64,000 bases of DNA from a virus, in the IMG/VR virus record IMGVR_UViG_3300017761_005873, positions 1-64,000 of that record, one strand, 5' to 3'. The notes beneath the pieces were generated by a model, which saw only the letters and a program-made list of their open reading frames with translations, did no database searches and was not told where the DNA came from. The translations under genes and the position numbers were made by a program. Below, piece after piece: positions 2,841 to 17,293 of the stretch (positions within the stretch are counted from its first letter, which is position 1; each line of letters opens with the position of its first letter).

Positions 2841-5800
2841 TTATTTAAGTTTTCTAAAACCGTATTTATTAGAGAAGTAATTATAGTTCTTTTTAATTTC
2901 AGGGAATGGTAAATCAATGTCATACATTCTAAGTCTTTGTATTTTTCCATAAAATGAGCCATCAAAATTTTCTTCAATAACAGATTTAATTCCTTTATTA
3001 TATAATATTTCAGTACTGATGGTATATGAAGTTGTACCTGTTAATTGAATTACATCATATTCACGGAATGAAATATCATCAAAATAAAAATTATAATAAG
3101 ATGTTATATTTTGTGAATTTTTGAATTTAACAACAGGTGTATAAGATGTATATCCAGTTATTCCACTTGGTGTTACAAAGTCAATTGATAAGTAAGTCCA
3201 TGTATTTGCAGAACTACTTGTATTGTAAGTTGTACTTGTTAATAATTCAATTTCAGAACTTAATGGATTTGTAAAATCAAAATAAATTCCTTTTTCTGTA
3301 TTTAGATTATATCCATTGTTATCATAGAAATATCCTTCCAAAACATATCTTTTATTTGGTTTTATTTCTAATGCATTTTCAAAAATTAATAGATTATTTG
3401 TTAATGAACTAAATGTTGTTGCAGTAGATGATGAAATAGAATTAGGAATTGGATTAAATTCAGTAAAGCTATAATTATCAATATAAAATTTATAATTTTT
3501 TGTTATTGCAGTAGTGTTTCCTGCTTTTATTACAGGTGTATAAACCGTGTAAGATGATAATACCCCAGGGGTTGTAAACTCAATACTTAAATCAACCCAA
3601 GTATTTGATGAAATAGTATTATTATATGTGATTGATGTTAAAATAACATTTTCACTTGACAATGTAGGTTCAAAATCAAAATAAATACTTTTTGATTGAC
3701 CACTTAAATAACTATTATCATCATAGAATTTAGTTGATAATTTGTATTTTTTACTAGGATTAATATTTATATCTTCAAATTTAAATATATTATTAGTTAA
3801 AGATGAATATGTTAAACCTGTAACAATATCTTGTTCATATAATTTAAAATCATCAAACTTAAACCCATAAATTGATGGGAAACAGTCACCAAAATCAACT
3901 GTAGCACCTAATGTGTAAGCTGTTGAACCTGTAATTATTGAAGGTGTTTTAATTTCAGTTCTTAATGTATACCAAGTATTAAAAGAATCTGAACTTGTGT
4001 ATGCTGTTTTACCAAGAACTTCATTTTCAGTATTTAAATTCAAGAAATTTATTTCGACATACTTATATGTACTTACAAAACTAAAGAAATCATTAAATCT
4101 TGATTCAATTATGTAAACTTTACTTGAATTTATTGGTTTAGGGTTTGTAAATGTAAAAATTGTATTACTAGGTGAATTGAATGTATTACCTGTAAGGTCA
4201 GTATTTCTTACATTTAAAATAAATTTAGATGGATTACCAATTTCACTAAATGGTAATGTTTCTAATGTACCACCAAACAAATCAATTGTAATACCAGATG
4301 TAATACCACTAGTATGACCACTATTTTCAAATTGACCAAAATTAGCATCATTTATTGTTAATGTATTTGATGTATATTGAGTTATTACAAGCGATGGTAA
4401 TGCAAGTTTAAGTGAACTATTTCCTGAGAAATATTGTTCTGTAGATACTTTTAATAATGTATTTTTTGTTTCGCTTGATACATTTTCAATAGAAGATTCA
4501 AATGTCTTTGTATAACCTGTATTATATACATAACTAAATCCTGTTAAGGAAAGTACAGGTAGTAAATTATAATTTTCATTATAAATTTCATCAAAATAAA
4601 ACTTATAACTTTGATTTATTCCTGATGGGTTATCAACAAAAACATATGGTGTATATGATGTATTTCCTGTTATTTGAGTTGGGGTGTTAAATTCAATTTT
4701 TAAATTATTCCAAACATTAAAAGATGTTGTGGTTGTGTAAGTTAAAGAACTTACAATAGTATGTTCTGAATTTAATGGTGGTAAGAATCCAATATAAACA
4801 CCTTTTGTTTCACCTGTATTGTAACTATTATTATCATAGAATTTAGCATTTATAATATATTTTTTATTAACTTCAGGAGTTAAAGCTGATAATCTTAATA
4901 ATGAATTGGTTGTTGAACTAAATGTAAACGATGTAAATGGTGTTAAAGGGTAATTTGTAATTTTAAAATTATCAAAATAAAATTTGTAATTTGAACTTAT
5001 ACCACTTTTGTTATATAATTTTGCAATAGGAATGTAAGATGTTGAACCTGTTAATGCACTAGGTGTTGTAAATTCTAAAGATAAATCAACCCAAGTTTTA
5101 GAAGAAGTTGTTGTGGTATAAGTTAAAGAAGATATTATTATATTTTCAGAATTTAAACCACCTGAAATTTGTAAAATTACACCTTTATCTTGACCGCTTA
5201 TATAACTATTATCATCATAAAATTGAGTATTAAGTATATATTTAGTATTACTTGTTATTGTAAATGAACTAAATTTAACTAAAACATCTGTTGTTGATGA
5301 TAAAGTGAATGATGTATAAACATCGATTGTTGAGGATGAGACAAAAAAGTTATCAAAATGAAATCTATAGCCAAGATTATTTATTGTAAGTGATGTTACT
5401 GTTTTTGCACTAAGTGTACCACCTGTAAATACTAAAGTAGCTTTAGATGGTTCACTTAAATCATGTTCATGGTCAATACTTGTTGAAAATTTATATGTTG
5501 TATTACCTGTCATTACAGAAGGTGTTTTGAATAAATAACTTAATTTTGTCCAAGTATTTGATGATGTCGTAGATGTATATGTTTTAGCAGATAAAATAAT
5601 AATTTCAGGGTCTAATTTTGGTATAGTATCTAAATAAATACCTTTATTTGAACCTGTCCAAGTTTTTGCTATATTTTGTGTATATGCAGAAACTCTAGTT
5701 GTATTACCACTTAAATCTGTTATCGTATAACTAGTTGTCAGATATATAGTAGTGGATGTATAATCATATGCATAACCTTCATAATAATATTCTGTATTTG

Positions 5801-8800
5801 GTAATAATGTTACATTTTTCTTAAAATAAAATAAATTATTATCAATACTAAAAAATGGCGCATAACTGTTTTTTTGTGGATATGGAATAATTTTTAATCC
5901 ACTAGTTCCACTATAAGGTAATGAGTTATCATATGGGTCTAAACCAGCTGTATTATTATTTGCTAATTTATATTGAAAATTTACCAAGTTTTCAAAATCA
6001 AAAATTTGTCCTGTTGGTATACCATCTATTTCGCTAAAATCAGAAATCGGATTAAACGTATTAATTGTAAGTCCTGTTGTAATTGTAATTCCTGATGAAT
6101 TACCAAATAATTTTAATGATGTTGCACTTGTATAGTATTGATTTGAAAATTGTTCAGTACTTGATGTTAATATTGATGCATTAATTTCTGATGTAAATCC
6201 ACTTATACTGCCTTCAAAATTGTATAATATTGTACCACCCGAAACATATTTATATAATGTTTTAGTTGATGAGGTTGCTGCTGATAATATTAATGAACTT
6301 AATCCTGAAAATGTTTGAGCAGTTGTTGATGTTATTACAACATCTAAAATATCTGTTGTTACACCACTAATGCTAGTATCAAAATTAATATTGCTTGATG
6401 TATTAAAGAAATATGTATAACTTGTTGAATAACCTGATAGGTATGTTATTGAAACAATTGGGTCAAAAGGTTTTAATTTTAATGAGTAATTACCTGAATG
6501 TGTAAATGCTGTACTTGATGTAATAATTATATTAATAACATCACTTGTAACACCTGTTATATTATTTTCAAATGTTCCAATATCACCATTTAAGAAATAA
6601 TTTGTATTTCCTGAAACTTCATATTGTTCAAAAACAAAATCATCAAAATAAAATTCATAATTATTTGATATTCCTGTTGGATTAACAAATTTAATTAAAG
6701 GTAAGTAAGTTGTATTTCCTGTTAATATTGATGGTGTTAAAAATGATAATTCTAAATCAACCCATGTCTGAGCAGATGTTGTAGTTGTATATGTTAAAGA
6801 TGAGATGATTATATTTTCAGAATTTAATCCACCTGAAAATGTTAAATAAACACCTTTGGTTTGCCCTGAATTATAACTATTATCATCATAAAATTTACCC
6901 TTATAAACATATTTTCTATCAGGAATTATATTTACAGGATTAAATATTAATAAGTTATTTCCTGTTGCACTAAATGTAAATGCTGATGTTGAGACAACAG
7001 TTTGTAAAATACTAGGTGAATATTCAATTATTGAAATATCATCAAAATAAAACTTATAATTATTAACTAAATTAGATGTAAAATCAACTTTAACAGATGG
7101 TAAATAATTTGTAATTCCTGTAAATGCCGATGGAGTTATAAATTCTAATTTTAAATCAACCCATTTTCTTTTTTCAACCGTATCACCATATGTGATTGAC
7201 GAAATAATTGTATTTTCAGAATTTAATCCACCTTGGAAAGTTAAAAATACTGACTTGCTATTACCTGTAAAACTATTATCATCATAAAATTTAGCAGTAT
7301 AAACATATCTACTATTAGGATTAAATGTTATACCTGTTGTACCAAAAATTGGTGTTGGTAAAGTGTTAATTAATAATAAATTATTAGTATCTGATGTGTA
7401 TGATAATGTAGATGCGCTAGAATTACTTAATTTAAGAGTTGTTTCACATTGATATGGATGGTCAGCACTTATTTCAACTAAACCATTATAAACTTCAGTA
7501 ATAACATTTCCAACTTGATAAATATCATTTATTAAATTTGTACTTGCAGTAATTGTTGTTGATGATACTACTGTTGTTGGTAGTATATTCATTTTTAAAT
7601 ATGAATTATCATTTGTTAGTACAGTTGTAAATAAATTATAAACCACATCAGTAGTAACACCTGTTATTGTAGCATCAAGAGTATTTGTATCACCATATTC
7701 TATTTGATTTGTACCACCTGTTAATTGAACAGTATAAGCATCAAAAGTAAAACTATCAAAATATAATTCATAAAATCTTGTTCCTGATGTTAAATTTTGA
7801 ATTTTAACGGCAGGTGTATATGATGTTAAACCTGTGATTATTTGTGGTGTTTGAATTTCTAAACTTAAATCAATCCAATTTTGTGGTAAATCTTCTGTTG
7901 TTAAATATGTTGAGGAGGTAATTACTTTTATTTCTGAATCTATAGTTTCTAGAAAACCTAAATAAATTTGGTTAACATAACAATTAAAACTATCATTATC
8001 ATATAATTTTGTACTATAAATATATTTTGTATTTGATGTTAAGATAATAGGTTGTGTAAATTTCAATAAATTATTACTTATAGCACTAAAACTATAACCT
8101 GTATAATCTGTATATGTTAATAGTAATGAAGAACTTCCTGAATAAGCCTGTGTTAAACTGCTTGTTAGTAATGAACCTACTAAATCAGATGAAACATTAT
8201 TAATACTTGTTTCAAAAGTACCAAAATCACCATCATTAAATAATGTTTGCCCTGTTACTAAAGTATAACTATAACCGCTTAAATTTTGAAGACTGTATCC
8301 ACTTTGATAAATAAATTCTCTACCTGTAATAATATTTTCAGTTACTGTTGCTGATGAAATCGCATCAACAAATGAATGTTTTAATCCCCAAGTACCGCCT
8401 CCCCAATTTATTGTGAATGGTATACCAATTTGTTTATCAACATCAGTTTTTAAAGGTCTTAACCAAAAAAATTCTTCAAGATTATCTATTTCGTGAAATA
8501 GAACACCATTCACAAAAATTTTAAAATGACCATCTCTTCTTGGAATACAATCAACTAAACTATCATTATCAAAATCTTTAATTTTTTTACAATATCTAAA
8601 AGTAGTTACGATATTTGTCCAACCTGTTGTTTCAATTGGATTATCTGTTTTAATCTCTGTTGTAAATGCAGATGTTACTAAATATTTCAATGATATTGTT
8701 TTATCATTATTGAATTTTAAACCTACTGCATTATATTCTAAATCATCAATAAAATTATAATTATCATAACTTATTTTAGATGTATCATCATTTGAACCTG

Positions 8801-9332
8801 AAAATGCGACATTAAATTTATTTTCTGATTTTGTTCCTAAATATAAGAAGAATCCATCTTTAAATGAATTAATATTTTCAAATGTTTCATTATCAATATA
8901 TAACCAAGTATCTATTGAAAAACCATTCTCATTTCTATATTTTCCAAGTTGAAATGGTTTATCATATAATTTAATATATGTGCTTAAATATCCACCTGAT
9001 AAATCAAAAGAATTACCTTCTGTGGATGATGTGTAAAGTTGTATGTTTGGAAATGTAGTATTACCTTCTGAATCATTATAACCGATTCTATTGAAAACTA
9101 GATTTCTATCTTTTATTGAAAAAGATTTTGAATCTGTAAAAGATGTTGCAAGACCAAAATCGTACATTGTCTGTCCAAAACCTGTTAAAGTAAGGTTTGA
9201 CAGAACATAATTTTCCCAAAATGTTAAACTAGTTACAGAAAATCCTGCATTATTGTCGAATGACTTTATATTTGATATGTCGAAATCAAATATAATGTTA
9301 TCTTTAGTAAGTCCTGTATTATTGAATATCAT
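2841..9332 (-). CDS. 2163-aa virion protein: LamG/ConA-like domain interrupted by nine nested CBM4/9-like modules
   Basis: LamG elements FSIDTWLY, GWTNIVTTF, KIFVNG and C-terminal FYGKIQRLRMY...EIKKNYN. Nine Y/F-x-F-D-terminated beta-sandwich repeats lie between them. Confidence 0.75.
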   Translation of the reverse strand: MIFNNTGLTKDNIIFDFDISNIKSFDNNAGFSVTSLTFWENYVLSNLTLTGFGQTMYDFGLATSFTDSKSFSIKDRNLVFNRIGYNDSEGNTTFPNIQLYTSSTEGNSFDLSGGYLSTYIKLYDKPFQLGKYRNENGFSIDTWLYIDNETFENINSFKDGFFLYLGTKSENKFNVAFSGSNDDTSKISYDNYNFIDDLEYNAVGLKFNNDKTISLKYLVTSAFTTEIKTDNPIETTGWTNIVTTFRYCKKIKDFDNDSLVDCIPRRDGHFKIFVNGVLFHEIDNLEEFFWLRPLKTDVDKQIGIPFTINWGGGTWGLKHSFVDAISSATVTENIITGREFIYQSGYSLQNLSGYSYTLVTGQTLFNDGDFGTFETSINNVSSDLVGSLLTSSLTQAYSGSSSLLLTYTDYTGYSFSAISNNLLKFTQPIILTSNTKYIYSTKLYDNDSFNCYVNQIYLGFLETIDSEIKVITSSTYLTTEDLPQNWIDLSLEIQTPQIITGLTSYTPAVKIQNLTSGTRFYELYFDSFTFDAYTVQLTGGTNQIEYGDTNTLDATITGVTTDVVYNLFTTVLTNDNSYLKMNILPTTVVSSTTITASTNLINDIYQVGNVITEVYNGLVEISADHPYQCETTLKLSNSSASTLSYTSDTNNLLLINTLPTPIFGTTGITFNPNSRYVYTAKFYDDNSFTGNSKSVFLTFQGGLNSENTIISSITYGDTVEKRKWVDLKLEFITPSAFTGITNYLPSVKVDFTSNLVNNYKFYFDDISIIEYSPSILQTVVSTSAFTFSATGNNLLIFNPVNIIPDRKYVYKGKFYDDNSYNSGQTKGVYLTFSGGLNSENIIISSLTYTTTTSAQTWVDLELSFLTPSILTGNTTYLPLIKFVNPTGISNNYEFYFDDFVFEQYEVSGNTNYFLNGDIGTFENNITGVTSDVINIIITSSTAFTHSGNYSLKLKPFDPIVSITYLSGYSTSYTYFFNTSSNINFDTSISGVTTDILDVVITSTTAQTFSGLSSLILSAATSSTKTLYKYVSGGTILYNFEGSISGFTSEINASILTSSTEQFSNQYYTSATSLKLFGNSSGITITTGLTINTFNPISDFSEIDGIPTGQIFDFENLVNFQYKLANNNTAGLDPYDNSLPYSGTSGLKIIPYPQKNSYAPFFSIDNNLFYFKKNVTLLPNTEYYYEGYAYDYTSTTIYLTTSYTITDLSGNTTRVSAYTQNIAKTWTGSNKGIYLDTIPKLDPEIIILSAKTYTSTTSSNTWTKLSYLFKTPSVMTGNTTYKFSTSIDHEHDLSEPSKATLVFTGGTLSAKTVTSLTINNLGYRFHFDNFFVSSSTIDVYTSFTLSSTTDVLVKFSSFTITSNTKYILNTQFYDDNSYISGQDKGVILQISGGLNSENIIISSLTYTTTTSSKTWVDLSLEFTTPSALTGSTSYIPIAKLYNKSGISSNYKFYFDNFKITNYPLTPFTSFTFSSTTNSLLRLSALTPEVNKKYIINAKFYDNNSYNTGETKGVYIGFLPPLNSEHTIVSSLTYTTTTSFNVWNNLKIEFNTPTQITGNTSYTPYVFVDNPSGINQSYKFYFDEIYNENYNLLPVLSLTGFSYVYNTGYTKTFESSIENVSSETKNTLLKVSTEQYFSGNSSLKLALPSLVITQYTSNTLTINDANFGQFENSGHTSGITSGITIDLFGGTLETLPFSEIGNPSKFILNVRNTDLTGNTFNSPSNTIFTFTNPKPINSSKVYIIESRFNDFFSFVSTYKYVEINFLNLNTENEVLGKTAYTSSDSFNTWYTLRTEIKTPSIITGSTAYTLGATVDFGDCFPSIYGFKFDDFKLYEQDIVTGLTYSSLTNNIFKFEDININPSKKYKLSTKFYDDNSYLSGQSKSIYFDFEPTLSSENVILTSITYNNTISSNTWVDLSIEFTTPGVLSSYTVYTPVIKAGNTTAITKNYKFYIDNYSFTEFNPIPNSISSSTATTFSSLTNNLLIFENALEIKPNKRYVLEGYFYDNNGYNLNTEKGIYFDFTNPLSSEIELLTSTTYNTSSSANTWTYLSIDFVTPSGITGYTSYTPVVKFKNSQNITSYYNFYFDDISFREYDVIQLTGTTSYTISTEILYNKGIKSVIEENFDGSFYGKIQRLRMYDIDLPFPEIKKNYNYFSNKYGFRKLK

Positions 9333-9385: not shown

Positions 9386-11956
9386 TTAATTTTTAAATTC
9401 TATGAAAGAATTTCCATTTTCATCTTTATCAACCATAATGAGATAATCAGGATTAATTATATCACCATAAGCATGTTCAATGATAAGAATTTTATCAATA
9501 TCTTGTTTAACTTTATTCATTAAATTAATAAAATTCATTGCATTCCTTTCTGATAATTTTCCAAAAAGTTCATCAAGTAAAAGAATATTTGGTCTTGACC
9601 TATTATTCATAAATCTCAATGCAAGTCTAAGACAAATACAAGCAAATACTCTTTCCATCCCTGAACCTGAGATAACATTCTGAATAATTTCAGGAGTATC
9701 TTTCTTTGACATTTGAAAGAAAAGTTCATTATCAAAGAAAACATTAAAATCAATATCTTCTGTATATCCTTGAAGATACATATTTACTTTTGGGATTAGT
9801 TTCTTTAAAAGTGTGCTTGGAATACCCTCTCTATGAATACAATTTTGATATTCTTCTCTAATCAATTCTTGTCTTTGTTGTTCAAGATATTTCTCAATAG
9901 TGTTTTTATAATTTTCAATTTCATTTTTAGCAAAATCAATATTATATTTAAATTCATTAACTTTTTTTACATAAGACTCTTTTTCACTTTTAAATTCTTG
10001 AACTTTACTTTTATATGTCTCAATTTTAGTTTCAATTTTTTTATTTTCTTGAATATAAATAATATTTATATCATATTTTGAAAGTGTATCATTCCTTTGA
10101 GAAATCTTTAAATCAATATTTTCAATAAACATTGGAATATTATCATATTCCTGTTTGAATTTATTTCTTTTTTCTATTTCTTTAATTATAAGTTCAATCT
10201 TAGTAATCTTTTCTTTTACTTTAGTTATTGAAATACTTTCTTTTTTAATATCTTCTTCAAAATTAGTTATTAATAATTTTTTACTTTCAATAATTAATTC
10301 CTTATCTTTAATTTCCTCTTTATATTTATCAATATTTTTCTTAATTGATTTTATATCCAATTGATATTTATTTTTAAAGACTTCTTTTTTAATATCATCT
10401 TCAATTTTTTCAATATCTTGTTTTAGTTTATCAACTTTTACTTTAATTGCTGTTATTGCATCATCATCTTTTAAACGATTGCAACTTGGACAAACTTTGC
10501 TATCTTCTAATGAAGAAATTTGATTTTTAATCAAATCAATTTGTCTTTCTAAAGTTAATCTATCATTATCAATTTGGGAATCAATTTTACCTAAAGAAAG
10601 ATTTTCTTTATGAATATAACCATTTATAATACTAATATCATTTGTTATATTATTTATCTCTTTATTTAAATCCTTGATTTGGTCATTTTTAGAAATTAAC
10701 CAACCATTGAATGAATTTGATTTATCTTTTAATGAATTGTAAAGTTCTTCATCCAAAACAAACTTATTAAGTTCTTCAATTTGTTTTAAAAGGTCGATTT
10801 CTGACCTTTTCTTTTCTTCTTTATTATTAATAAGTTTATTAATTTCATCCTTAACTTTATTAATATCTAATTTAGACAATTCGGAATCAATTGGTTTTAA
10901 TGTTTTAATTGTATTTTCAACATGTGTTTCACCATTAGAAATTCTTTCATTTAAGACAGATATTTTATTTTTACTATCTTCAATATTTGTCTCATTTTCT
11001 TGAATTAAATTTTTTGCATCTTCAATTAATTGATTATATCTATCAACTGATATATTAAGTAATGATTCTTTTTTATATTCGTTCTTTTTATATGCTTTGA
11101 ATAGTTCAAGTTTCTTTTCAAAAATATCAAGACCAGTATCTCTAAGAATCGAATCTAAGAATTTAGCATGGTCGGTTGTTAAAATGTCATTTAATGTATC
11201 CGCATTAATTAATGATTTTGTAATAAATTCATCAAAATCACCAATTGAATGTTCAATTAATTTTTGTGTTTTAGACTTATCTTGTTCTGAAAGATTATTT
11301 TCATCAATTATTTCATTATTTGAGTCTAATTTATTGAAATAGGTTTTAGTTGAACATGATGTGATATCTGTGTGTGTTTTATCCCATTTTCTTTCAGTTC
11401 TTCTCCTAATGGCATAATCTTCACCATTAATTTCAACAATTAACTGAACTTCTGAATAATCTTTTTTGTTATTATTGTTGATAAATTTATTATCTCTGTT
11501 CTTCTCTTTTTTGAGAGTATCAAAGGTAGTACCATAAAGACCATATGTTATAGAATTTAAAATGTTTGAGTTATGTACTGCAATATTATTAGCATAATAT
11601 TCACCAATACCTTCAACTTGAATATCAACCAAGTCTTCATAGATATTAGGATTAAATAATATTGATTTGATAATTTCTAAACCATCCTTTGTTTGAAGTT
11701 TTATAAATCTCAATTCATTTCTGATTTCATTTAATGGTTTAAACAGTTTCAAATCTGTTCTAATAAGATGGTCTTTTGAAACTTTTATCGTTTTACCTGT
11801 TTCTGTTTCAATTGACCAAAATTCTGAATTTTTTGATGTTACATCATAAGCAAGTATTTTTGAATACCCACAAGGAGTCTCAACCTCAATATTTAATTCA
11901 GGAAGTAAATCTTTTAATATTTTAAGATTTTCAATTTTTATCTGTTTCTGTGTCAT
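9386..11956 (-). CDS. sbcC: SbcC/Rad50 (gp46-like) ATPase C-terminal fragment with N-terminal split-intein C-part (IntC)
   Basis: After ...NNIAVHN comes SNILNSITYGLYG (rest of Walker A helix), a long coiled coil, zinc hook CPSC, signature SGSGMER, Walker B ILLLDE and H-loop IIEH. Probable start ATG 11956 (track start 11980). Confidence 0.92.
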   Translation of the reverse strand: MTQKQIKIENLKILKDLLPELNIEVETPCGYSKILAYDVTSKNSEFWSIETETGKTIKVSKDHLIRTDLKLFKPLNEIRNELRFIKLQTKDGLEIIKSILFNPNIYEDLVDIQVEGIGEYYANNIAVHNSNILNSITYGLYGTTFDTLKKEKNRDNKFINNNNKKDYSEVQLIVEINGEDYAIRRRTERKWDKTHTDITSCSTKTYFNKLDSNNEIIDENNLSEQDKSKTQKLIEHSIGDFDEFITKSLINADTLNDILTTDHAKFLDSILRDTGLDIFEKKLELFKAYKKNEYKKESLLNISVDRYNQLIEDAKNLIQENETNIEDSKNKISVLNERISNGETHVENTIKTLKPIDSELSKLDINKVKDEINKLINNKEEKKRSEIDLLKQIEELNKFVLDEELYNSLKDKSNSFNGWLISKNDQIKDLNKEINNITNDISIINGYIHKENLSLGKIDSQIDNDRLTLERQIDLIKNQISSLEDSKVCPSCNRLKDDDAITAIKVKVDKLKQDIEKIEDDIKKEVFKNKYQLDIKSIKKNIDKYKEEIKDKELIIESKKLLITNFEEDIKKESISITKVKEKITKIELIIKEIEKRNKFKQEYDNIPMFIENIDLKISQRNDTLSKYDINIIYIQENKKIETKIETYKSKVQEFKSEKESYVKKVNEFKYNIDFAKNEIENYKNTIEKYLEQQRQELIREEYQNCIHREGIPSTLLKKLIPKVNMYLQGYTEDIDFNVFFDNELFFQMSKKDTPEIIQNVISGSGMERVFACICLRLALRFMNNRSRPNILLLDELFGKLSERNAMNFINLMNKVKQDIDKILIIEHAYGDIINPDYLIMVDKDENGNSFIEFKN
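11570..11956 (-). other. Split intein C-fragment (IntC, ~129 aa, no endonuclease)
   Basis: Block B-like KTIKVSKDHLI, block F LVDIQVEG-GEYYAN and terminal His-Asn followed by Ser+1. Confidence 0.92.
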
Positions 11957-12506
11957 ATTCAAGTAATGGAAAAATTTCAATAATATTATTTACCCTGTTA
12001 TTATAATTTTCATGTTTATTCTCAGGGTCAAAAAGAATAATTTTAGTATTTTTAAATTCTAATTCTGATAATTTAGGATTAGCACTTAGAATATAATCGA
12101 AATCTTCATCAACATATTCTACAAACTTATTGTAGAACCTAATCTCATCAAAATAAAATGATGCTGAAAAATTTGATATATAAAATGCTGTTAAACTTCT
12201 CATTTTAACACCCTCTCTTGATAGTATAATAATCCTATAGTTATTTTCAGATAATTCAGGATAAATTTGATTTATTTGTGCAATAATTTCTTTTGAAGGT
12301 AATGTTGATTTAGCAAATAATTCATACGAATATTGAAATATAAAATCTTCTAATTCATCATTTTCAAAATGAAATGAAAGTAATGGATTAAATGGGTCGA
12401 TTGGATAACCTATTGACCTATCAGCAAATTCAATTTTATAAAATTGTTCAAATTTTTTTATAAAATCTCTTAGAATTCCGTTTACTTCAATGGCAAATGT
12501 TTTCAT
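11931..12506 (-). CDS. HAD-superfamily 5'(3')-nucleotidase-like protein with degenerate motif I
   Basis: FAIEVNGILRDF resembles IAIDxDGVLxD. RIIILSRE is a motif II-like strand. Confidence 0.5.
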   Translation of the reverse strand: MKTFAIEVNGILRDFIKKFEQFYKIEFADRSIGYPIDPFNPLLSFHFENDELEDFIFQYSYELFAKSTLPSKEIIAQINQIYPELSENNYRIIILSREGVKMRSLTAFYISNFSASFYFDEIRFYNKFVEYVDEDFDYILSANPKLSELEFKNTKIILFDPENKHENYNNRVNNIIEIFPLLEYDTETDKN

Positions 12507-12510
12507 AACA

Positions 12511-12518
12511 CAAATATA
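12511..12518 (-). promoter_or_regulatory. Bacteroidota-type -7 promoter box TATATTTG driving the HAD-like plus IntC-sbcC operon
   Basis: TAnnTTTG just upstream of ATG 12506. The same box is at 17298, 28941, 35686, 39277 and 45012. Confidence 0.6.
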
Positions 12519-12529
12519 TGATTTTTTGT

Positions 12530-12538
12530 CGTATTTTA
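12530..12538 (+). promoter_or_regulatory. CGTATTTTA motif (putative middle promoter)
   Basis: Recurs upstream of ORF starts at 12530(+), 20209(-), 28951(-), 50538(+) and 59094(+). Confidence 0.5.
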
Positions 12539-12558
12539 ATTAAAAATATAAATAAAAA

Positions 12559-13632
12559 ATGGATAAATTAGACAAACTGAATGAATTATTCAATAATATT
12601 GAAAGCAATAATTTCAATATTTATTTGTATGTTCCATCTATTCCAGAGAATGTATATTCAATGGCTGTTGAGGAAATATACAATATTTGTTTCTTTCTAA
12701 GAAAAAATAACTATAATGCTTTTCTGATTACAGGAGAAGATGAAAAAGAAGTTGAATATAAAATTCCTTCTTATTTATCAGAAGATTTAAGAAATGTACC
12801 ACATCTTTCACCTAAAAAAGATAATATTAATGTATCACCTAGTGATGTATTAATTGTTCCTGAATTTTTCGTGAATGTAATGCATCAAATTTTTGATGCT
12901 AAAATTCAATGTGAGAAAATTGTTCTTTGTCAATCTCAAGTATATATGTTGGATTCTCTTCCACCAAATCATACTTGGGCTGCTTGGGGATTTAACACAA
13001 TCGTCACAACTTCTCAACAATTAAAAGAATTTATCCAAAGAAATTCAAGAGTAAATTATAATATTCAATCATATACAATTGGTATTCCTGATTATTTTAA
13101 ACCTAAAAAAATTAAAAAACCAATTATTATGTATTTTTCAAGAGAAGATAATGTTATTAAGAGATTATCAAAGATTTTCTTTATGAAATTTCCTGAACTT
13201 TCTTGGGTTCTTTTTGAAAGAGTACAAGGTGGTGAACCATTTATTACAAGAGAGAAACTTGCTGAAAAAATGGGTGAAGTTCCTGTTCTTCTATGGCTTG
13301 ATAAAGATGCAGGGTTTGGTACACTTCCACTTGAAGCAATGAAAAGTGGTGCTGTTGTAGTTGGTATGATTCCTGAAATCGAAAAGGATTATCTTAAAAA
13401 TGATGATACAGCAGTTTGGTCAAATTCACTTGAAGTGCTTGCAGAGCAACTAGGTGTAGTCATTAAAGAATGGATGGTTGATAATGTTCCACAAACAGTT
13501 TATGATAACATGGAAAAGGTTTCAAGTCAATTTACAACCGAAAATCATGAAAAAACACTAATTGAAGCATTTTCAAATATTTTTGAAAATAGAAAAAAAT
13601 TAATTAAACAAGTAATAGAAAATGAAAAATAA
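12559..13632 (+). CDS. GT-B fold (GT4-like) glycosyltransferase
   Basis: DVLIVPE and AGFGTLPLEAMKSGAVVVG motifs. Paralog of 28927-29883. Confidence 0.8.
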   Translation: MDKLDKLNELFNNIESNNFNIYLYVPSIPENVYSMAVEEIYNICFFLRKNNYNAFLITGEDEKEVEYKIPSYLSEDLRNVPHLSPKKDNINVSPSDVLIVPEFFVNVMHQIFDAKIQCEKIVLCQSQVYMLDSLPPNHTWAAWGFNTIVTTSQQLKEFIQRNSRVNYNIQSYTIGIPDYFKPKKIKKPIIMYFSREDNVIKRLSKIFFMKFPELSWVLFERVQGGEPFITREKLAEKMGEVPVLLWLDKDAGFGTLPLEAMKSGAVVVGMIPEIEKDYLKNDDTAVWSNSLEVLAEQLGVVIKEWMVDNVPQTVYDNMEKVSSQFTTENHEKTLIEAFSNIFENRKKLIKQVIENEK

Positions 13633-14431
13633 AACATTAGATTTAACTGTGATTATTCCATTTAATAAAATGGAAAATGATTTAGATAAAGAATTATTTG
13701 ATTTAGCAATCAAATCAATTTACAATCAAAATGATGGTATTTTACCAAAAGAAGTAATTGTTATTACAACTACTGAAACTAGTAAATCTTTAGATTTAAA
13801 AGAGTTTAAAAACACAAGAGTTGTTATTAATGATGAAACATCGGATAATGTTCAAAGTCAAATTAATAAAGCTGTAGATGAAGTTAAAACTAATTTCTTT
13901 ATGATTTTAGATGGTGATGATGAATTAAGTAATTTTTATTTTCAAAATGTAAATATTCATATGGAAGAAATGTCAAATATTGATATGTTTCTTCCTTTGA
14001 TTGCTGATGTTTCAATTGATAAAAAAATTCATCGATATATCAACGAAATTAATTGGGCAAAAGATGTGACAAATGATAGACATGGTTATTTGACTATGGA
14101 AACATTAATGAATTATAATCTTGTTTCAATTAATGGTGCTGTGATTAAAAAAGAAAAATTTGAAGAGGCAGGTAAATTAAAAGAATCAATGAAACTTAGT
14201 TTTGTTCATGAGTTTTTAATGAGATTTACTAACATTGATGGTATTACATATACTATTCCAAAGATTGGTTATTTAAGGAAATTTGGAAGAGAAAATTCAT
14301 ATCTATCAATTCAATCAAAAATGGATAATGATGAAATTAGTTTTTGGTGGAATCTTGCTAAAAAAGAATATGTTTGGCCTCATGACAGAAATAAGACCTA
14401 TGTAAAGAAGCAAGAAGCACCTATTATTTAA
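13622..14431 (+). CDS. GT2-family glycosyltransferase
   Basis: LTVIIPFN, SIYNQ, EVIVI and FMILDGDD (DxD) motifs. Confidence 0.8.
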   Translation: MKNKTLDLTVIIPFNKMENDLDKELFDLAIKSIYNQNDGILPKEVIVITTTETSKSLDLKEFKNTRVVINDETSDNVQSQINKAVDEVKTNFFMILDGDDELSNFYFQNVNIHMEEMSNIDMFLPLIADVSIDKKIHRYINEINWAKDVTNDRHGYLTMETLMNYNLVSINGAVIKKEKFEEAGKLKESMKLSFVHEFLMRFTNIDGITYTIPKIGYLRKFGRENSYLSIQSKMDNDEISFWWNLAKKEYVWPHDRNKTYVKKQEAPII

Positions 14432-15229
14432 ATGATAGAAGTGGTTAAAAAAGGCAGACGTGGTAGGAAAGCAAAACCAGGGTCTGTAAAGGAGTATTTT
14501 ACTGATGCAACAGAAAAGGCTATTATTAAATATAATAGCCCTTACTGTTCATTAGAAGAAAAAAATGAAATATATGAGAAAGAAATACATAAAGCTTTAA
14601 AGAAACTTGCATACTTTACAGCAAAATCATATTTTCTTTATTTTTCTAAAAGATACTCAATAGAAGATATGGAAAATGACCTGTTGATATTTGCATACAA
14701 TAATCTTCATATGTTTAATCCTGAAAAGATTAATAAAAATGGTGTAAAATCAAAGGCATTTTCCTACTTCTCCACAATATGTAAAAATGAAGCCAAGCAT
14801 ATATCTGAAAGAAATTTTAATCAAGATAAAACAAGTGATGATATTGTGGAAAATATAGAAATATTTGAAAGAAATATCAATCTATCTTATGAAATTAATG
14901 AAAATTTAGAAGAAGATATCGATAATAATTATATAAGAATTGTATTTTTTGGACTTTGTACAGAAATCAAAACTAAAATAGAAACTGATAAAAATTTAAA
15001 AGAAATTGATATAAATATTGGTTATTCATTAATATCGATAATTGAAAATTTTAAATATATTAATGAACCAACAGAATCAAAAATGAGTTTATTCTTTTTA
15101 AATAATAAGGTTGTTGATATGATTTGTGAACTAACTGAATCAAGATATAAAAAACAAGATATTAAAAAATCCCTTAAATCATTTAAATGTATTTATAAAA
15201 AATTAAAAGATGATTATTTATCATTATGA
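14432..15229 (+). CDS. Phage RNA polymerase sigma factor (T4 gp55-like)
   Basis: KEYF...AIIKYN...EDMENDLLIFAYNNLHMFNPEK...KAFSYFSTICKN is a sigma region 2 pattern typical of gp55-like factors. Confidence 0.7.
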   Translation: MIEVVKKGRRGRKAKPGSVKEYFTDATEKAIIKYNSPYCSLEEKNEIYEKEIHKALKKLAYFTAKSYFLYFSKRYSIEDMENDLLIFAYNNLHMFNPEKINKNGVKSKAFSYFSTICKNEAKHISERNFNQDKTSDDIVENIEIFERNINLSYEINENLEEDIDNNYIRIVFFGLCTEIKTKIETDKNLKEIDINIGYSLISIIENFKYINEPTESKMSLFFLNNKVVDMICELTESRYKKQDIKKSLKSFKCIYKKLKDDYLSL

Positions 15230-15384
15230 GGTTTTTTATCCTTATCACAACCACATGACTTTTGTTTGATATATTTTGTATTATCAAGTATAAGAATAAT
15301 AGAAGATATACCAATTTTATACCAAATACTTAAATTTGGTAAAAAATAACTTAATCCGAAAAAACATAATAAAGAATACAACAT
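15214..15384 (-). CDS. Small 56-aa membrane protein with C-terminal CGC
   Basis: Below the track cut-off: MLYSLLCFFGLSYFLPNLSIWYKIGISSIILILDNTKYIKQKSCGCDKDKKPHNDK. Preceded by a CTATTTAT motif. Confidence 0.55.
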   Translation of the reverse strand: MLYSLLCFFGLSYFLPNLSIWYKIGISSIILILDNTKYIKQKSCGCDKDKKPHNDK

Positions 15385-15386
15385 AC

Positions 15387-15403
15387 CTATTTATTATAAA
15401 TAG
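15387..15403. promoter_or_regulatory. Back-to-back putative late promoter palindrome CTATTTATTATAAATAG
   Basis: CTATTTAT on both strands between divergent ATGs 15384(-) and 15410(+). Confidence 0.6.
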
Positions 15404-15409
15404 ATTATA

Positions 15410-15712
15410 ATGGATGAATTTAATATATATGCAGATTTTGTAACAGATAATACTTTTGCTACACTACCATTCATAAAGATTGATGAAAGTCCTGAAGATG
15501 TATATGTTCAATGGACACTTGGTGACCGTTTAGATAGGTTAGCATATAAATATTATAATAATGTTGCATTTGGTAAATTTATTTTATTGGCAAATCCTCA
15601 ATATGTTTCGGAAAATGATATTGAAACGGATTCTATTGTTAGAATACCAATGCCAAAACAATCATTAATTAATATAATTCGTGATAAAATAAATAAAAGT
15701 AAAAAATTTTAA
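15410..15712 (+). CDS. LysM/tail-X-like baseplate wedge protein (gp53-like)
   Basis: GDRLDRLAYKYY...ILLANP...IVRIP motif. Confidence 0.75.
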   Translation: MDEFNIYADFVTDNTFATLPFIKIDESPEDVYVQWTLGDRLDRLAYKYYNNVAFGKFILLANPQYVSENDIETDSIVRIPMPKQSLINIIRDKINKSKKF

Positions 15713-15951
15713 AGCCTTTCTCCTTGATATCTATTTTTAATAAATTGTATGAATGCTTTACCTGTTGATTCGGCATTCTGTAATTCATTATAATCTGAAA
15801 GACTAACATTATCGTATTTATATACTAAATTACCTTTTACAAATGTTACTTGTAAAGTATTATTTGTAATATTGTAAATTGATGAAACAATATTAGATGA
15901 GTCATATGTTGCTTCAATGATTCCATTTTCTTCTTTTACACTTGTTGTCAT
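15709..15951 (-). CDS. KTSC domain protein
   Basis: DSSNIVSSIYN...LQVTF-KG-VYKYDNV...AESTGKAF..FIK pattern. Confidence 0.85.
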   Translation of the reverse strand: MTTSVKEENGIIEATYDSSNIVSSIYNITNNTLQVTFVKGNLVYKYDNVSLSDYNELQNAESTGKAFIQFIKNRYQGERL

Positions 15952-15955
15952 ATTT

Positions 15956-17293
15956 TTATTTTAAAAATTCAGGTAAATAACCTAGTTTACTTATTATTTC
16001 TTCTTCATTAAATCTAATGTTGATTTTAGTTTCAGGATGAACACATTTACCAACCTGATTCTCGCCATAGATTTGAATAATTCCATTTTTATCACTTAAA
16101 TCAAGTTCATATCGTTCTCCATGTGATTTGAAATTATCAAGAACAATCTTTTTAACTTTCCAATCGTAAAATTGATTCTCTATATCCTTTTCAATTAATG
16201 AACTAATTTCATTATCAAGACTTAAAACATCTTTAATAAAGTCTTCATTATGATTCTTTGCTTTTAGAAAATTAATGAATTCTTGTCTTACACTATCATC
16301 ATTATTTAAATCAATAGTTTCATCAAATTCTTTAATCTTTAAAGATTTATTAAGAATCTTTGATTTATCAAATTTAATAGTGGTGAATTCACCATATTTA
16401 GAATCTAAATGTTTTTTAATCTTTTGTTTATTCTCAACAGTAAATGTTGAATATTGGTCCATCCAATGAATTTTAAGATGATTATATTTACCAACATTTG
16501 TAAGTTCAATATTTAGATTTTCGTAATCATAATCTTCGTTTATATAAACATTAAAATATTTATATTCCGAAAATATTTCTTTCTTTTCAAAAATCTTTGC
16601 TTCAATATCCCAAAGAAGATAACCGTGAAAAGCATTATCACCTTCACCATAATTTGTACAATATAGTGAGGATGGGTAAGCAAAAAATTCTTTACCATTT
16701 TTTTGATATGATTGTTGGAGATGTATATCTCCTGCCATTACAATATCACCTTTAAAATCAGCAAGAGAAACAATATTACTATCGGTATGGAGTTGTCCAT
16801 TTTGTAGATAACATCCATTAATAGGGTCATGGAAAAGGTCAATATAACATTTATTATTATCACGCTCTTCTTGATTGAACTCAAGCCAAGGGGATTTTCT
16901 GTCAGGATGATACCAAACAGCGAAAGTAATGTTATCAAGTTCAAAAAAACCTGTTGAGTCATAATAATGTATGTTTGGGTTATTAATAATCTCAACAAGC
17001 ATCTTAATTGATGACATTCTATTGAGATTTGATTTCATTATATCGTGATTCCCATCGATAATCACTACAGGTGCTATCATAGCACATGAGTTTAAGAAAT
17101 CACCTGCAAGAACATTAATTTCATTAAATGGTTTTACATAATTGTGAAAAAGGTCTCCTGCAATTACAATTAAATCAGGTTTATCATTTGTAAGTGATTC
17201 AATCGTTAAATTTGAGACATGTTTTTGCTCCGCTAGTCTATCCAAATTATTTTGAAAATGGACATCAGCAAGGTGGGCAATTTTTTTAATCAT
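15956..17293 (-). CDS. sbcD: SbcD/Mre11 (gp47-like) nuclease fused to the first ~39 aa of SbcC/Rad50 and a 29-aa split-intein N-part
   Basis: Phosphoesterase motifs HLADVH, AGDLFH, GNHD, LFH and GDIH, then WKVKKIVLDNFKSH...IYGENQVGK, then CVHPETKI... Confidence 0.92.
   Translation of the reverse strand: MIKKIAHLADVHFQNNLDRLAEQKHVSNLTIESLTNDKPDLIVIAGDLFHNYVKPFNEINVLAGDFLNSCAMIAPVVIIDGNHDIMKSNLNRMSSIKMLVEIINNPNIHYYDSTGFFELDNITFAVWYHPDRKSPWLEFNQEERDNNKCYIDLFHDPINGCYLQNGQLHTDSNIVSLADFKGDIVMAGDIHLQQSYQKNGKEFFAYPSSLYCTNYGEGDNAFHGYLLWDIEAKIFEKKEIFSEYKYFNVYINEDYDYENLNIELTNVGKYNHLKIHWMDQYSTFTVENKQKIKKHLDSKYGEFTTIKFDKSKILNKSLKIKEFDETIDLNNDDSVRQEFINFLKAKNHNEDFIKDVLSLDNEISSLIEKDIENQFYDWKVKKIVLDNFKSHGERYELDLSDKNGIIQIYGENQVGKCVHPETKINIRFNEEEIISKLGYLPEFLK
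15959..16045 (-). other. Split intein N-fragment (IntN, 29 aa)
   Basis: Block A CVHPETKINI begins immediately after the Walker A GK, and the ORF stops 29 aa later. Confidence 0.9.

Follow-up and report, generated by a model that had tools for sequence, protein, structure and literature searches.

The window analysed here covers positions 1 to 64,000 of a virus record of 129 kb (IMG/VR IMGVR_UViG_3300017761_005873), which is estimated to be about 40% complete. It contains the two halves of a phage gene that is interrupted by an intein. We consider, with a probability of about 0.88, that the element is a natural split class-1 mini-intein which lies in the Walker A motif (P-loop) of a single-chain Mre11-Rad50 protein of an uncultured large phage and joins two separately made proteins. 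One part of the intein, IntN, is a stretch of 29 amino acids (aa) at the end of the first protein; the other, IntC, comprises the first 129 aa of the second. Support comes from the anatomy of the two genes, homology, colinearity with intein-free alleles, conservation of residues, the selection acting on both parts and the reproducibility of the locus.

Anatomy of the split gene and its product

The first half (N gene) is a minus-strand open reading frame (ORF) of 445 aa at 15956-17293, whose product terminates in ...IIQIYGENQVGK, followed by CVHPETKINIRFNEEEIISKLGYLPEFLK and the stop codon. The second half (C gene, 856 aa) is a minus-strand ORF that runs from an ATG at 11956 down to 9386. Its first 129 residues finish in ...YYANNIAVHN and are followed by SNILNSITYGLYG... 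A TTG at 11980 would offer an earlier start; the relatives begin at the Met encoded at 11956. The codon of the catalytic Cys1 occupies 16043-16045, the IntN stop 15956-15958, the codon of the terminal Asn 11570-11572 and that of the following residue, Ser+1, 11567-11569. The IntN stop and the IntC start are separated by 3,999 nt (11957-15955). The coordinates given in a preliminary description of this DNA, made from the sequence alone, were exact.

That description had spoken of a split Rad50 gene. The P-loop that is broken is indeed that of Rad50, but the N gene proved to encode an Mre11/SbcD nuclease fused to the Rad50 N-terminus. Residues 4-191 of its product matched the Pfam family Metallophos (calcineurin-like phosphoesterase, Mre11/SbcD; E 7.2e-12). 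The Rad50 N-terminus (WKVKKIVLDNFKSHGE...) begins at about residue 378, in frame and without an intervening stop codon or Met, and contributes about 40 residues. On phrog_35725, a phage profile of a fused nuclease-ATPase with 1376 positions, the N gene covered positions 6-481 (E 5.4e-25) and the C gene positions 1021-1356. Since both genes match this fused Mre11-Rad50 profile, the spliced product is predicted to be a single-chain Mre11-Rad50 of about 416 + 727 = 1,143 residues. The C gene also matched phrog_77, an SbcC-like subunit (E 5.5e-28), and more weakly the Pfam family SbcC_Walker_B (E 5.5e-5; 23.8 bits, under the 27-bit cut-off). The metal-binding motifs of Mre11 and the zinc hook, signature motif and Walker B motif of Rad50 are all present, and Cys492 of the zinc-hook CPxC was invariant in 27 C fragments. 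Walker A would be complete only after splicing.

Homology, fold and catalytic residues

A phmmer search of the PDB with the single IntC sequence gave a weak match to the intein gp41-1 (E 1.3e-3). A family profile built from 15 IntC sequences was far more sensitive and reached the solved inteins gp41-1 (2.7e-12), VidaL (4e-12), NrdJ-1 (5e-11) and Cat (6dsl_B, 1.6e-8). When 1.84 billion representative sequences were searched with IntC by phmmer, 79 matches at E <= 1e-3 were obtained. The match started at most 10 residues from the N-terminus of the protein in 62 of the 79, which are therefore taken as further IntC-first fragments. Seventeen of the matching sequences were inspected; some were C fragments of Rad50, either of the fused or of the T4 gp46 type. 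The same intein occurred in contiguous form in the fused Mre11-Rad50 proteins P0072 (1017 aa) and P0115 (1211 aa) and in the gp46-like proteins P0086 and P0094. As a side observation, an IntC of this family (E 2.4e-4) heads P0134 (376 aa), a C fragment of a DnaB/gp41-like helicase, so that the atypically split intein family also occurs in a helicase P-loop.

The AlphaFold2 (AF2) model of IntC had a mean predicted local distance difference test score (pLDDT) of 89.9. With this model Foldseek recovered 45 matches in the PDB at E <= 0.001. The best of them by template modelling (TM) score was VidaL (6vgv; TM 0.80, root-mean-square deviation 2.3 A), and all 39 matches listed were inteins, intein-like BIL domains or the hedgehog autoprocessing domain. 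On this model IntC has a Hint fold.

The residues expected to carry out splicing are strongly conserved. Cys1, which is Cys417 of the N gene and follows the Walker A Lys directly, was invariant in all 12 split-type N fragments. His63 of block B, Asp111 and the terminal His128 and Asn129 were invariant in the 27 C fragments, in which Ser60 and Ser130 (Ser+1) were at least 90% conserved. The preliminary description had called Cys1, the terminal His-Asn and Ser+1 canonical, and their conservation in 12 to 27 sequences bears this out.

Intein-free alleles and the insertion point

Relatives without an intein make the position of the element plain. In LR756501.1, a 735-kb uncultured phage, tblastn placed residues 1-418 of the N gene at 280889-282133 and residues 130-853 of the C gene at 278534-280894, on one strand and end to end. 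Both matches fall in an ORF of 1202 aa in which ...GENQQGK runs straight into TTIIDAICFILYG and to which the N-extein is colinear over residues 1-413. Thus the alleles are colinear across the junction, and the proposal that removal of both intein parts would restore an intact Rad50 P-loop stands. Judged from these alignments the insertion point is between the Lys and the Ser/Thr of Walker A (GxxxxGK|S).

Intein-free alleles were in the majority in both sets of loci examined. Among the 65 IMG/VR relatives of the N gene (loci L003-L067) there were 55 intein-free fusions, in which the Gly-Lys is followed by Thr or Ser, and nine split genes; the remaining locus was too weak for a call. With P0010 a second clade was found, represented by 30 metagenome loci, and it gave a similar picture (25 intein-free, four split, one without a call). 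In all 11 further full-length split-type N fragments, which shared 38-91% identity, a 29-aa IntN follows the identical Gly-Lys, a pattern far beyond chance. Such scattered occurrence, confined to a single position within a highly conserved motif, is typical of a mobile intein.

A second, different intein was noted in this protein family. It is a full-length intein of about 300-330 aa which stands right after the GNHD metal-binding motif in the Mre11-domain relatives P0036 (552 aa) and P0041 (520 aa). Its inner domain resembles a homing endonuclease, the residue following GNHD is C, and a PF14890 assignment is precomputed for both proteins. This family has therefore been invaded at two conserved sites.

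Docking of the two halves, the split site and the IntN tail

The complex of the two intein parts, whose modelling the preliminary description had suggested, was predicted from residues 397-445 of the N gene and residues 1-150 of the C gene. The interface score ipSAE was 0.80 (0.78, 0.81 and 0.80 in the individual runs) compared with 0.00 for the best of three controls. Of 80 solved complexes 58 attain the mark applied to this score, as do 2 of 110 mismatched pairs. The runs shared at least 69% of their contacts, and the pLDDT of the partners was at least 65.

In the predicted complex IntN residues 417-430 contact residues 1-10 and 20-26 of IntC. The most confident contacts are those of IntN 422-426, the second strand, which lies between IntC 3-8 and 23-26. 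Helix alpha1 occupies residues 8-17 of IntC in the AF2 model, position 2 of the IntC profile aligns to residue 22 of the VidaL chain, and in the contiguous relative P0078 a short loop connects strand beta2 to the start of IntC. Because these contacts, the location of alpha1 within IntC, the VidaL alignment and the P0078 loop agree, the models place the split directly after strand beta2, at the site designated S1. Homology, the Hint model, the predicted docking and conservation thus all point to an atypically split intein composed of a 29-aa IntN and a 129-aa IntC, as had been proposed.

The last 16-17 residues of IntN (NEEEIISKLGYLPEFLK) form an added tail that is conserved down to 38% extein identity and is kept in the contiguous forms P0072, P0082 and P0115. 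Residues 432-444 of this tail are predicted to touch IntC. A natural counterpart occurs at locus L011 (11238-11291; the same contig is also L076). Its N gene is 55% identical to that of the window and ends in a 17-residue IntN, CLHPSTRVKIRYGLSER, which has a clean stop codon and does not possess the conserved tail.

Reproducibility of the locus and selection

The same split was found in six IMG/VR contigs (L005-L010), each with both halves in view on one strand and 4.9-5.8 kb apart. In L011 the halves are 5.0 kb apart and IntC lies downstream. Both ORFs were intact in every contig examined, and all had the IntN stop and the IntC Met. Logan contigs from three other studies span two junctions with 0-1 differences: that of the IntN stop with the neighbouring KTSC-domain gene, and that of ORF 11931-12506 with the start of IntC. 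In no Logan contig was IntN joined directly to IntC. As the same split recurs in independent contigs, it is not the product of misassembly.

Ratios of nonsynonymous to synonymous substitution rates (dN/dS), computed pairwise between the window and the relatives described above, were 0.02-0.15 in IntN, 0.20-0.35 in IntC and 0.05-0.08 in the exteins. Purifying selection therefore acts on both parts of the intein, more loosely on IntC than on the host protein.

Proposed mechanism and alternative explanations

In the mechanism that we favour, one half would be translated as the Mre11 nuclease with the first Rad50 strands and the 29-aa IntN, and the other as the 129-aa IntC with 727 aa of Rad50. 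After translation the beta1-beta2 hairpin of IntN would slot between strand beta3 of IntC (residues 3-8) and the next strand (23-26), completing the Hint fold. Cys1 would then form a thioester, Ser+1 would attack it and the terminal Asn would cyclise. The peptide bond formed would restore the P-loop and yield the Mre11-Rad50 of about 1,143 aa. We infer that the halves associate in the cell, that this splicing chemistry takes place and that the ATPase depends on it.

Several observations weigh against this interpretation. The Pfam model Intein_splicing (PF14890) did not reach its gathering score with IntC (15.1 against 35.8 bits; E 0.07 in the genome scan). We read this shortfall as insensitivity of the Pfam model, because the IntC family profile reaches solved inteins at 1e-12; clear matches came from the family profile only, those of the single sequence being weak. 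The block B motif of inteins is Thr-x-x-His, and here it reads S60-K-D-H63, with Ser in place of the usual Thr. IntC showed only 58-75% identity compared with about 85% for the exteins, and this faster evolution would also fit some relaxation of selection. The docking result may reflect likeness to solved split inteins, or memory of them in the model. The 17-aa IntN of L011 makes the role of the tail of the 29-aa form ambiguous. The halves lie in what appear to be different transcription units, so that co-expression is an assumption. Finally, no spliced product, transcript or peptide of the split gene was observed, the material being one RNA run that contained only pieces of intervening genes. 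This run (X19) yielded two short contigs within those genes and none on the split gene, and is neutral on expression.

Some of these points would also suit a different reading, that the halves associate without being spliced, either as a non-covalent dimerisation module or with a P-loop that stays interrupted in an enzyme working in some other way. Splicing is, after all, a prediction from the sequence, IntC diverges faster than the exteins, and block B has its unusual Ser. Against this, a Walker A motif with 158 foreign residues between its Lys and its Ser could hardly bind ATP. Moreover, the residues that serve only the chemistry (Cys1, the block B His, the block F Asp, the terminal His-Asn and Ser/Thr+1) are invariant or nearly so in 12 to 27 diverged sequences. 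Docking would not need them, so their conservation argues for more than docking, and we regard association without splicing as very unlikely. A slimmer chance still attaches to the idea that the phage no longer needs an Mre11-Rad50 of its own and that both ORFs are remnants on the way to being lost. Such decay would accommodate the unrelated genes that have gathered between the halves and the lack of a recognised homing endonuclease there. It is hard to reconcile with the intactness of both ORFs in all contigs examined, with an extein dN/dS of 0.05-0.08, with the presence of the Mre11 metal-binding motifs, the zinc hook, the signature motif and Walker B, and with the persistence of the layout in relatives down to 55% identity (L011).

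The preliminary description had also considered that the intein parts might truly be contiguous and the 4-kb block between them an assembly artefact. The record was assembled from a metagenome and is estimated to be only about 40% complete, which leaves some room for such an error. Six independent IMG/VR contigs with both halves in view show the same order, however, and both junctions are also spanned, with 0-1 differences, in the contigs of three other studies, none of which joins IntN to IntC. This explanation can practically be discounted, and trans-splicing of the two halves remains the reading that we prefer.

If the two proteins are spliced, the arrangement might in this clade have been co-opted as a post-translational AND-gate: with the nuclease half closing one operon and the ATPase half opening another, a potentially self-damaging Mre11-Rad50 nuclease would need expression of both units to become active. 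We consider this unlikely. In that case the IntN tail, packed on helix alpha1 of IntC, would be an added affinity module that lets the catalytic IntN core of 13-17 residues find its partner at low concentration with a folded N-extein of 416 residues attached.

A graded series of split forms and the origin of the gap

Contiguous-intein alleles, which had been suggested as something to search for together with intein-free ones, were found among the relatives, as were forms with gaps of various sizes. The series consists of 28 IMG/VR loci recovered with the IntC profile, in which IntN was located by a pattern search. The gap sizes given here are approximate and possibly up to about 0.1 kb too small, as the IntN pattern could pass the first stop codon. 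The intein was contiguous in five of the 28 loci (L073, L074, L075, L083 and L091). In four (L078, L079, L094 and L096) the halves were about 0.1-0.3 kb apart. Eight loci (L071, L080-L082, L084, L092, L093 and L095) had a gap of about 0.9-1.3 kb with one ORF in it, and in three, which are the contigs of L007, L010 and L011 again, the halves were about 5 kb apart. The pattern search found no IntN candidate in the remaining eight (L072, L077 and L085-L090), where it could lie outside the fetched DNA or escape the pattern.

The ORF between the halves in L071 encodes a GIY-YIG endonuclease (E 1.2e-10). None of the other inter-half ORFs (338-439 aa) could be placed in a Pfam family; of six that were scanned, three matched only phrog_22677, a family of unknown function. 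Those of L080, L081, L084, L092, L093, L095 and L114 share repeated 'YW..KG[YFW]S..E' motifs and a conserved C-terminal region. The P0010 clade likewise has a gap of about 1.3 kb, occupied by a single 439-aa ORF of this type (L114, 11355-12674). By their position these proteins are candidate homing endonucleases; a Vsr-like label for them would derive from position alone.

The close relatives of the window differ in what the gap contains. In them the IntN stop is directly followed by an AAA+ ATPase gene (366-368 aa, phrog_7485), and L006 and L007 also have a gene for an FkbM-like methyltransferase there. The window possesses neither, and the space between the halves is therefore a variable cargo region.

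The window clade is the far end of this series of fractured genes. The split most likely began with a contiguous mini-intein whose beta2-beta3 loop received a free-standing homing endonuclease gene, a course suggested by the existence of relatives with contiguous forms and with gaps of 0.1-1.3 kb. In the window clade the endonuclease would later have been lost or replaced and other genes would have been gathered.

Gene neighbourhood

The features of the locus are listed in Table 1. The stretch from the IntN stop to the IntC start holds six unrelated ORFs, four on the strand opposite to the split gene, and the same six are syntenic in close relatives. None of the six matched an endonuclease family in Pfam or PHROGs.

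Table 1. Features of the split Mre11-Rad50 locus; coordinates refer to the window unless a relative is named
Feature	Coordinates	Strand	Description
N-extein, 416 aa	16046..17293	-	Mre11/SbcD calcineurin-like nuclease and in-frame Rad50 N-terminal segment (WKVKKIVLDNFKSHGE...GENQVGK); last residue is the Walker A Lys
IntN, 29 aa	15959..16045	-	Cys1 and predicted beta1-beta2 hairpin CVHPETKINIRF, then conserved tail NEEEIISKLGYLPEFLK
IntC, 129 aa	11570..11956	-	Predicted beta3 and helix alpha1, block B SKDH, block F DLVDIQVEG..YYANN, block G His-Asn
C-extein, 727 aa + stop	9386..11569	-	Remaining Rad50/SbcC from Walker A Ser+1 (SNILNSITYGLYG...): coiled coil, CPSC zinc hook, signature motif, Walker B
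ORF, 191 aa	11931..12506	-	No Pfam/PHROG match; 3' end overlaps IntC start by 26 nt; syntenic in relatives
Three ORFs, 357, 269 and 265 aa	12559..15229	+	Weak GT1-like, glycosyltransferase family 2-like (all family matches under curated cut-offs) and unmatched, respectively; syntenic in L005-L010
Baseplate-wedge-like ORF, 100 aa	15410-15712	+	phrog_7145, E 7.1e-7
KTSC-domain ORF, 80 aa	15709-15951	-	Pfam KTSC, E 7.7e-14; start 4 nt past IntN stop
Extra cargo gene in relative L008	11339-12439		
Extra cargo genes in relative L007	11341-11949 and 11942-13048		

The N half is the last but one gene of a long leftward run, which it helps to close; the region 17337-49191 is entirely on the minus strand. 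The C half and ORF 11931-12506 open another leftward run after a divergent spacer of 52 nt. ORF 11931-12506 is probably co-transcribed with the C half because it overlaps the start of IntC. From the orientation of the genes the two halves would form separate transcription units.

In one contig of run X4 position 12568 is joined to 15389, so that the 2.8-kb plus-strand cassette is missing; only 24 letters support the joint on one side. We regard it as unreliable and unrelated to the intein; it could represent either a chimera or a variant without the cassette.

Low G+C content (about 25%) is typical of the window, and its phage genes include those for a DnaB-like helicase, a baseplate hub and an exonuclease. 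Immediately downstream of the C gene lies a 2163-aa ORF (2841-9332, minus strand) composed of many diverged repeats of about 120-130 aa which finish in a YKFYFDD-like motif. It is kept at 73-80% identity in relatives and may encode a fibre or adhesin. At the start of the window, positions 1-2000 have a G+C content of 0.37 compared with about 0.25 elsewhere, and an open-ended 663-aa ORF in this segment matches phrog_25468 over four stretches.

Significance and comparison with known systems

Split inteins with a short IntN are prized in protein semisynthesis and live-cell labelling; to our knowledge few natural ones have been characterised. The type is rare but known, and the present family is widespread in uncultured phages. 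It adds many diverged, presumably orthogonal, pairs split at the S1 site, and the natural 29-aa and 17-aa IntN variants of one intein are a ready-made test of what the tail contributes. For the biology of large phages the locus would mean that a near-universal end-processing enzyme, Mre11-Rad50, can depend on predicted trans-splicing. The relatives also document how a fractured gene drifts apart, from the contiguous state through a 0.1-kb gap and a 1-kb gap with an endonuclease gene to 4-6 kb with cargo genes. In the window the halves have drifted into what gene orientation suggests are different transcription units without a recognisable endonuclease between them. A 'threading' problem has been described for atypical split inteins (PMC11766414); the window intein, which must work with a large folded N-extein, bears on it.

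According to a 2026 paper (PMC13014065), natural short IntN fragments range from 15 to 37 aa and two natural split sites exist: S1, after beta2, is used by VidaL and PolB16, and S2, after alpha1, by AceL-TerL and GOS-TerL. VidaL, a natural, atypically split intein with a 16-aa IntN (PDB 6vgv/6vgw; Burton et al. 2020 as cited in PMC13014065), is the closest characterised relative of the window intein. Like the latter it is a class-1 Cys1 mini-intein split right after beta2. Identity between VidaL and the IntC of the window is only about 21% despite the best structural match, and the IntN of the window owes its 29 aa to a conserved tail of about 16 aa that VidaL does not have. The host of the window intein is Mre11-Rad50, with the halves 4 kb apart, whereas the native host gene of VidaL is not named in the passages available; VidaL itself may derive from a related gene.

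The preliminary description had named AceL-TerL as an example of the short-IntN type. AceL-TerL, GOS-TerL and their consensus Cat are atypically split with an IntN of 25-37 aa (Thiel 2014, Bachmann & Mootz 2015, as cited in PMC11766414 and PMC13014065). AceL-TerL and GOS-TerL resemble the window intein: they too are natural, come from phages and pair a short IntN with a long IntC. They are split after alpha1 (S2) and reside in the large terminase, whereas in the window alpha1 belongs to IntC and the predicted split site is that of VidaL and PolB16. gp41-1 (PDB 6qaz) is the best sequence match to IntC and is likewise inserted in a phage P-loop ATPase. It resides in the gp41 helicase and, unlike the window intein, is split in the canonical way, IntN being the long part and IntC the short one.

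Fractured genes with inteins were described by Dassa, London, Stoddard, Schueler-Furman and Pietrokovski in 2009 (PMC2677866), whose paper lists eight host enzymes. As in those cases, a phage gene of DNA metabolism is broken at an intein in the window and its halves lie on one strand. The relatives with one inter-half ORF have the very layout given there, and of the free-standing homing endonuclease that belongs to it, a recognised example was found in the relative L071 and none in the window. The words Rad50, SbcC and gp46 are absent from Dassa et al. 2009 (PMC2677866). The preliminary description knew of no such intein in SbcC or gp46. Our own search, which did not cover the VidaL paper and supplementary intein tables, likewise found no published intein, split or not, in Rad50, SbcC, gp46 or a fused Mre11-Rad50.

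Mre11/Rad50 fusion proteins are themselves already in print (Yoshida et al. 2011, PMC3175470). These have nuclease and ATPase in one chain, as the predicted window product would, and are encoded by contiguous genes, whereas the fusion in the window would be complete only after protein splicing. The mechanism, class-1 trans-splicing, is known, as are the short-IntN asymmetry and the split site, so that the intein is not a new kind. What distinguishes it is the combination of a fused Mre11-Rad50 host, six unrelated genes between the halves without a recognised endonuclease, and a conserved IntN tail.

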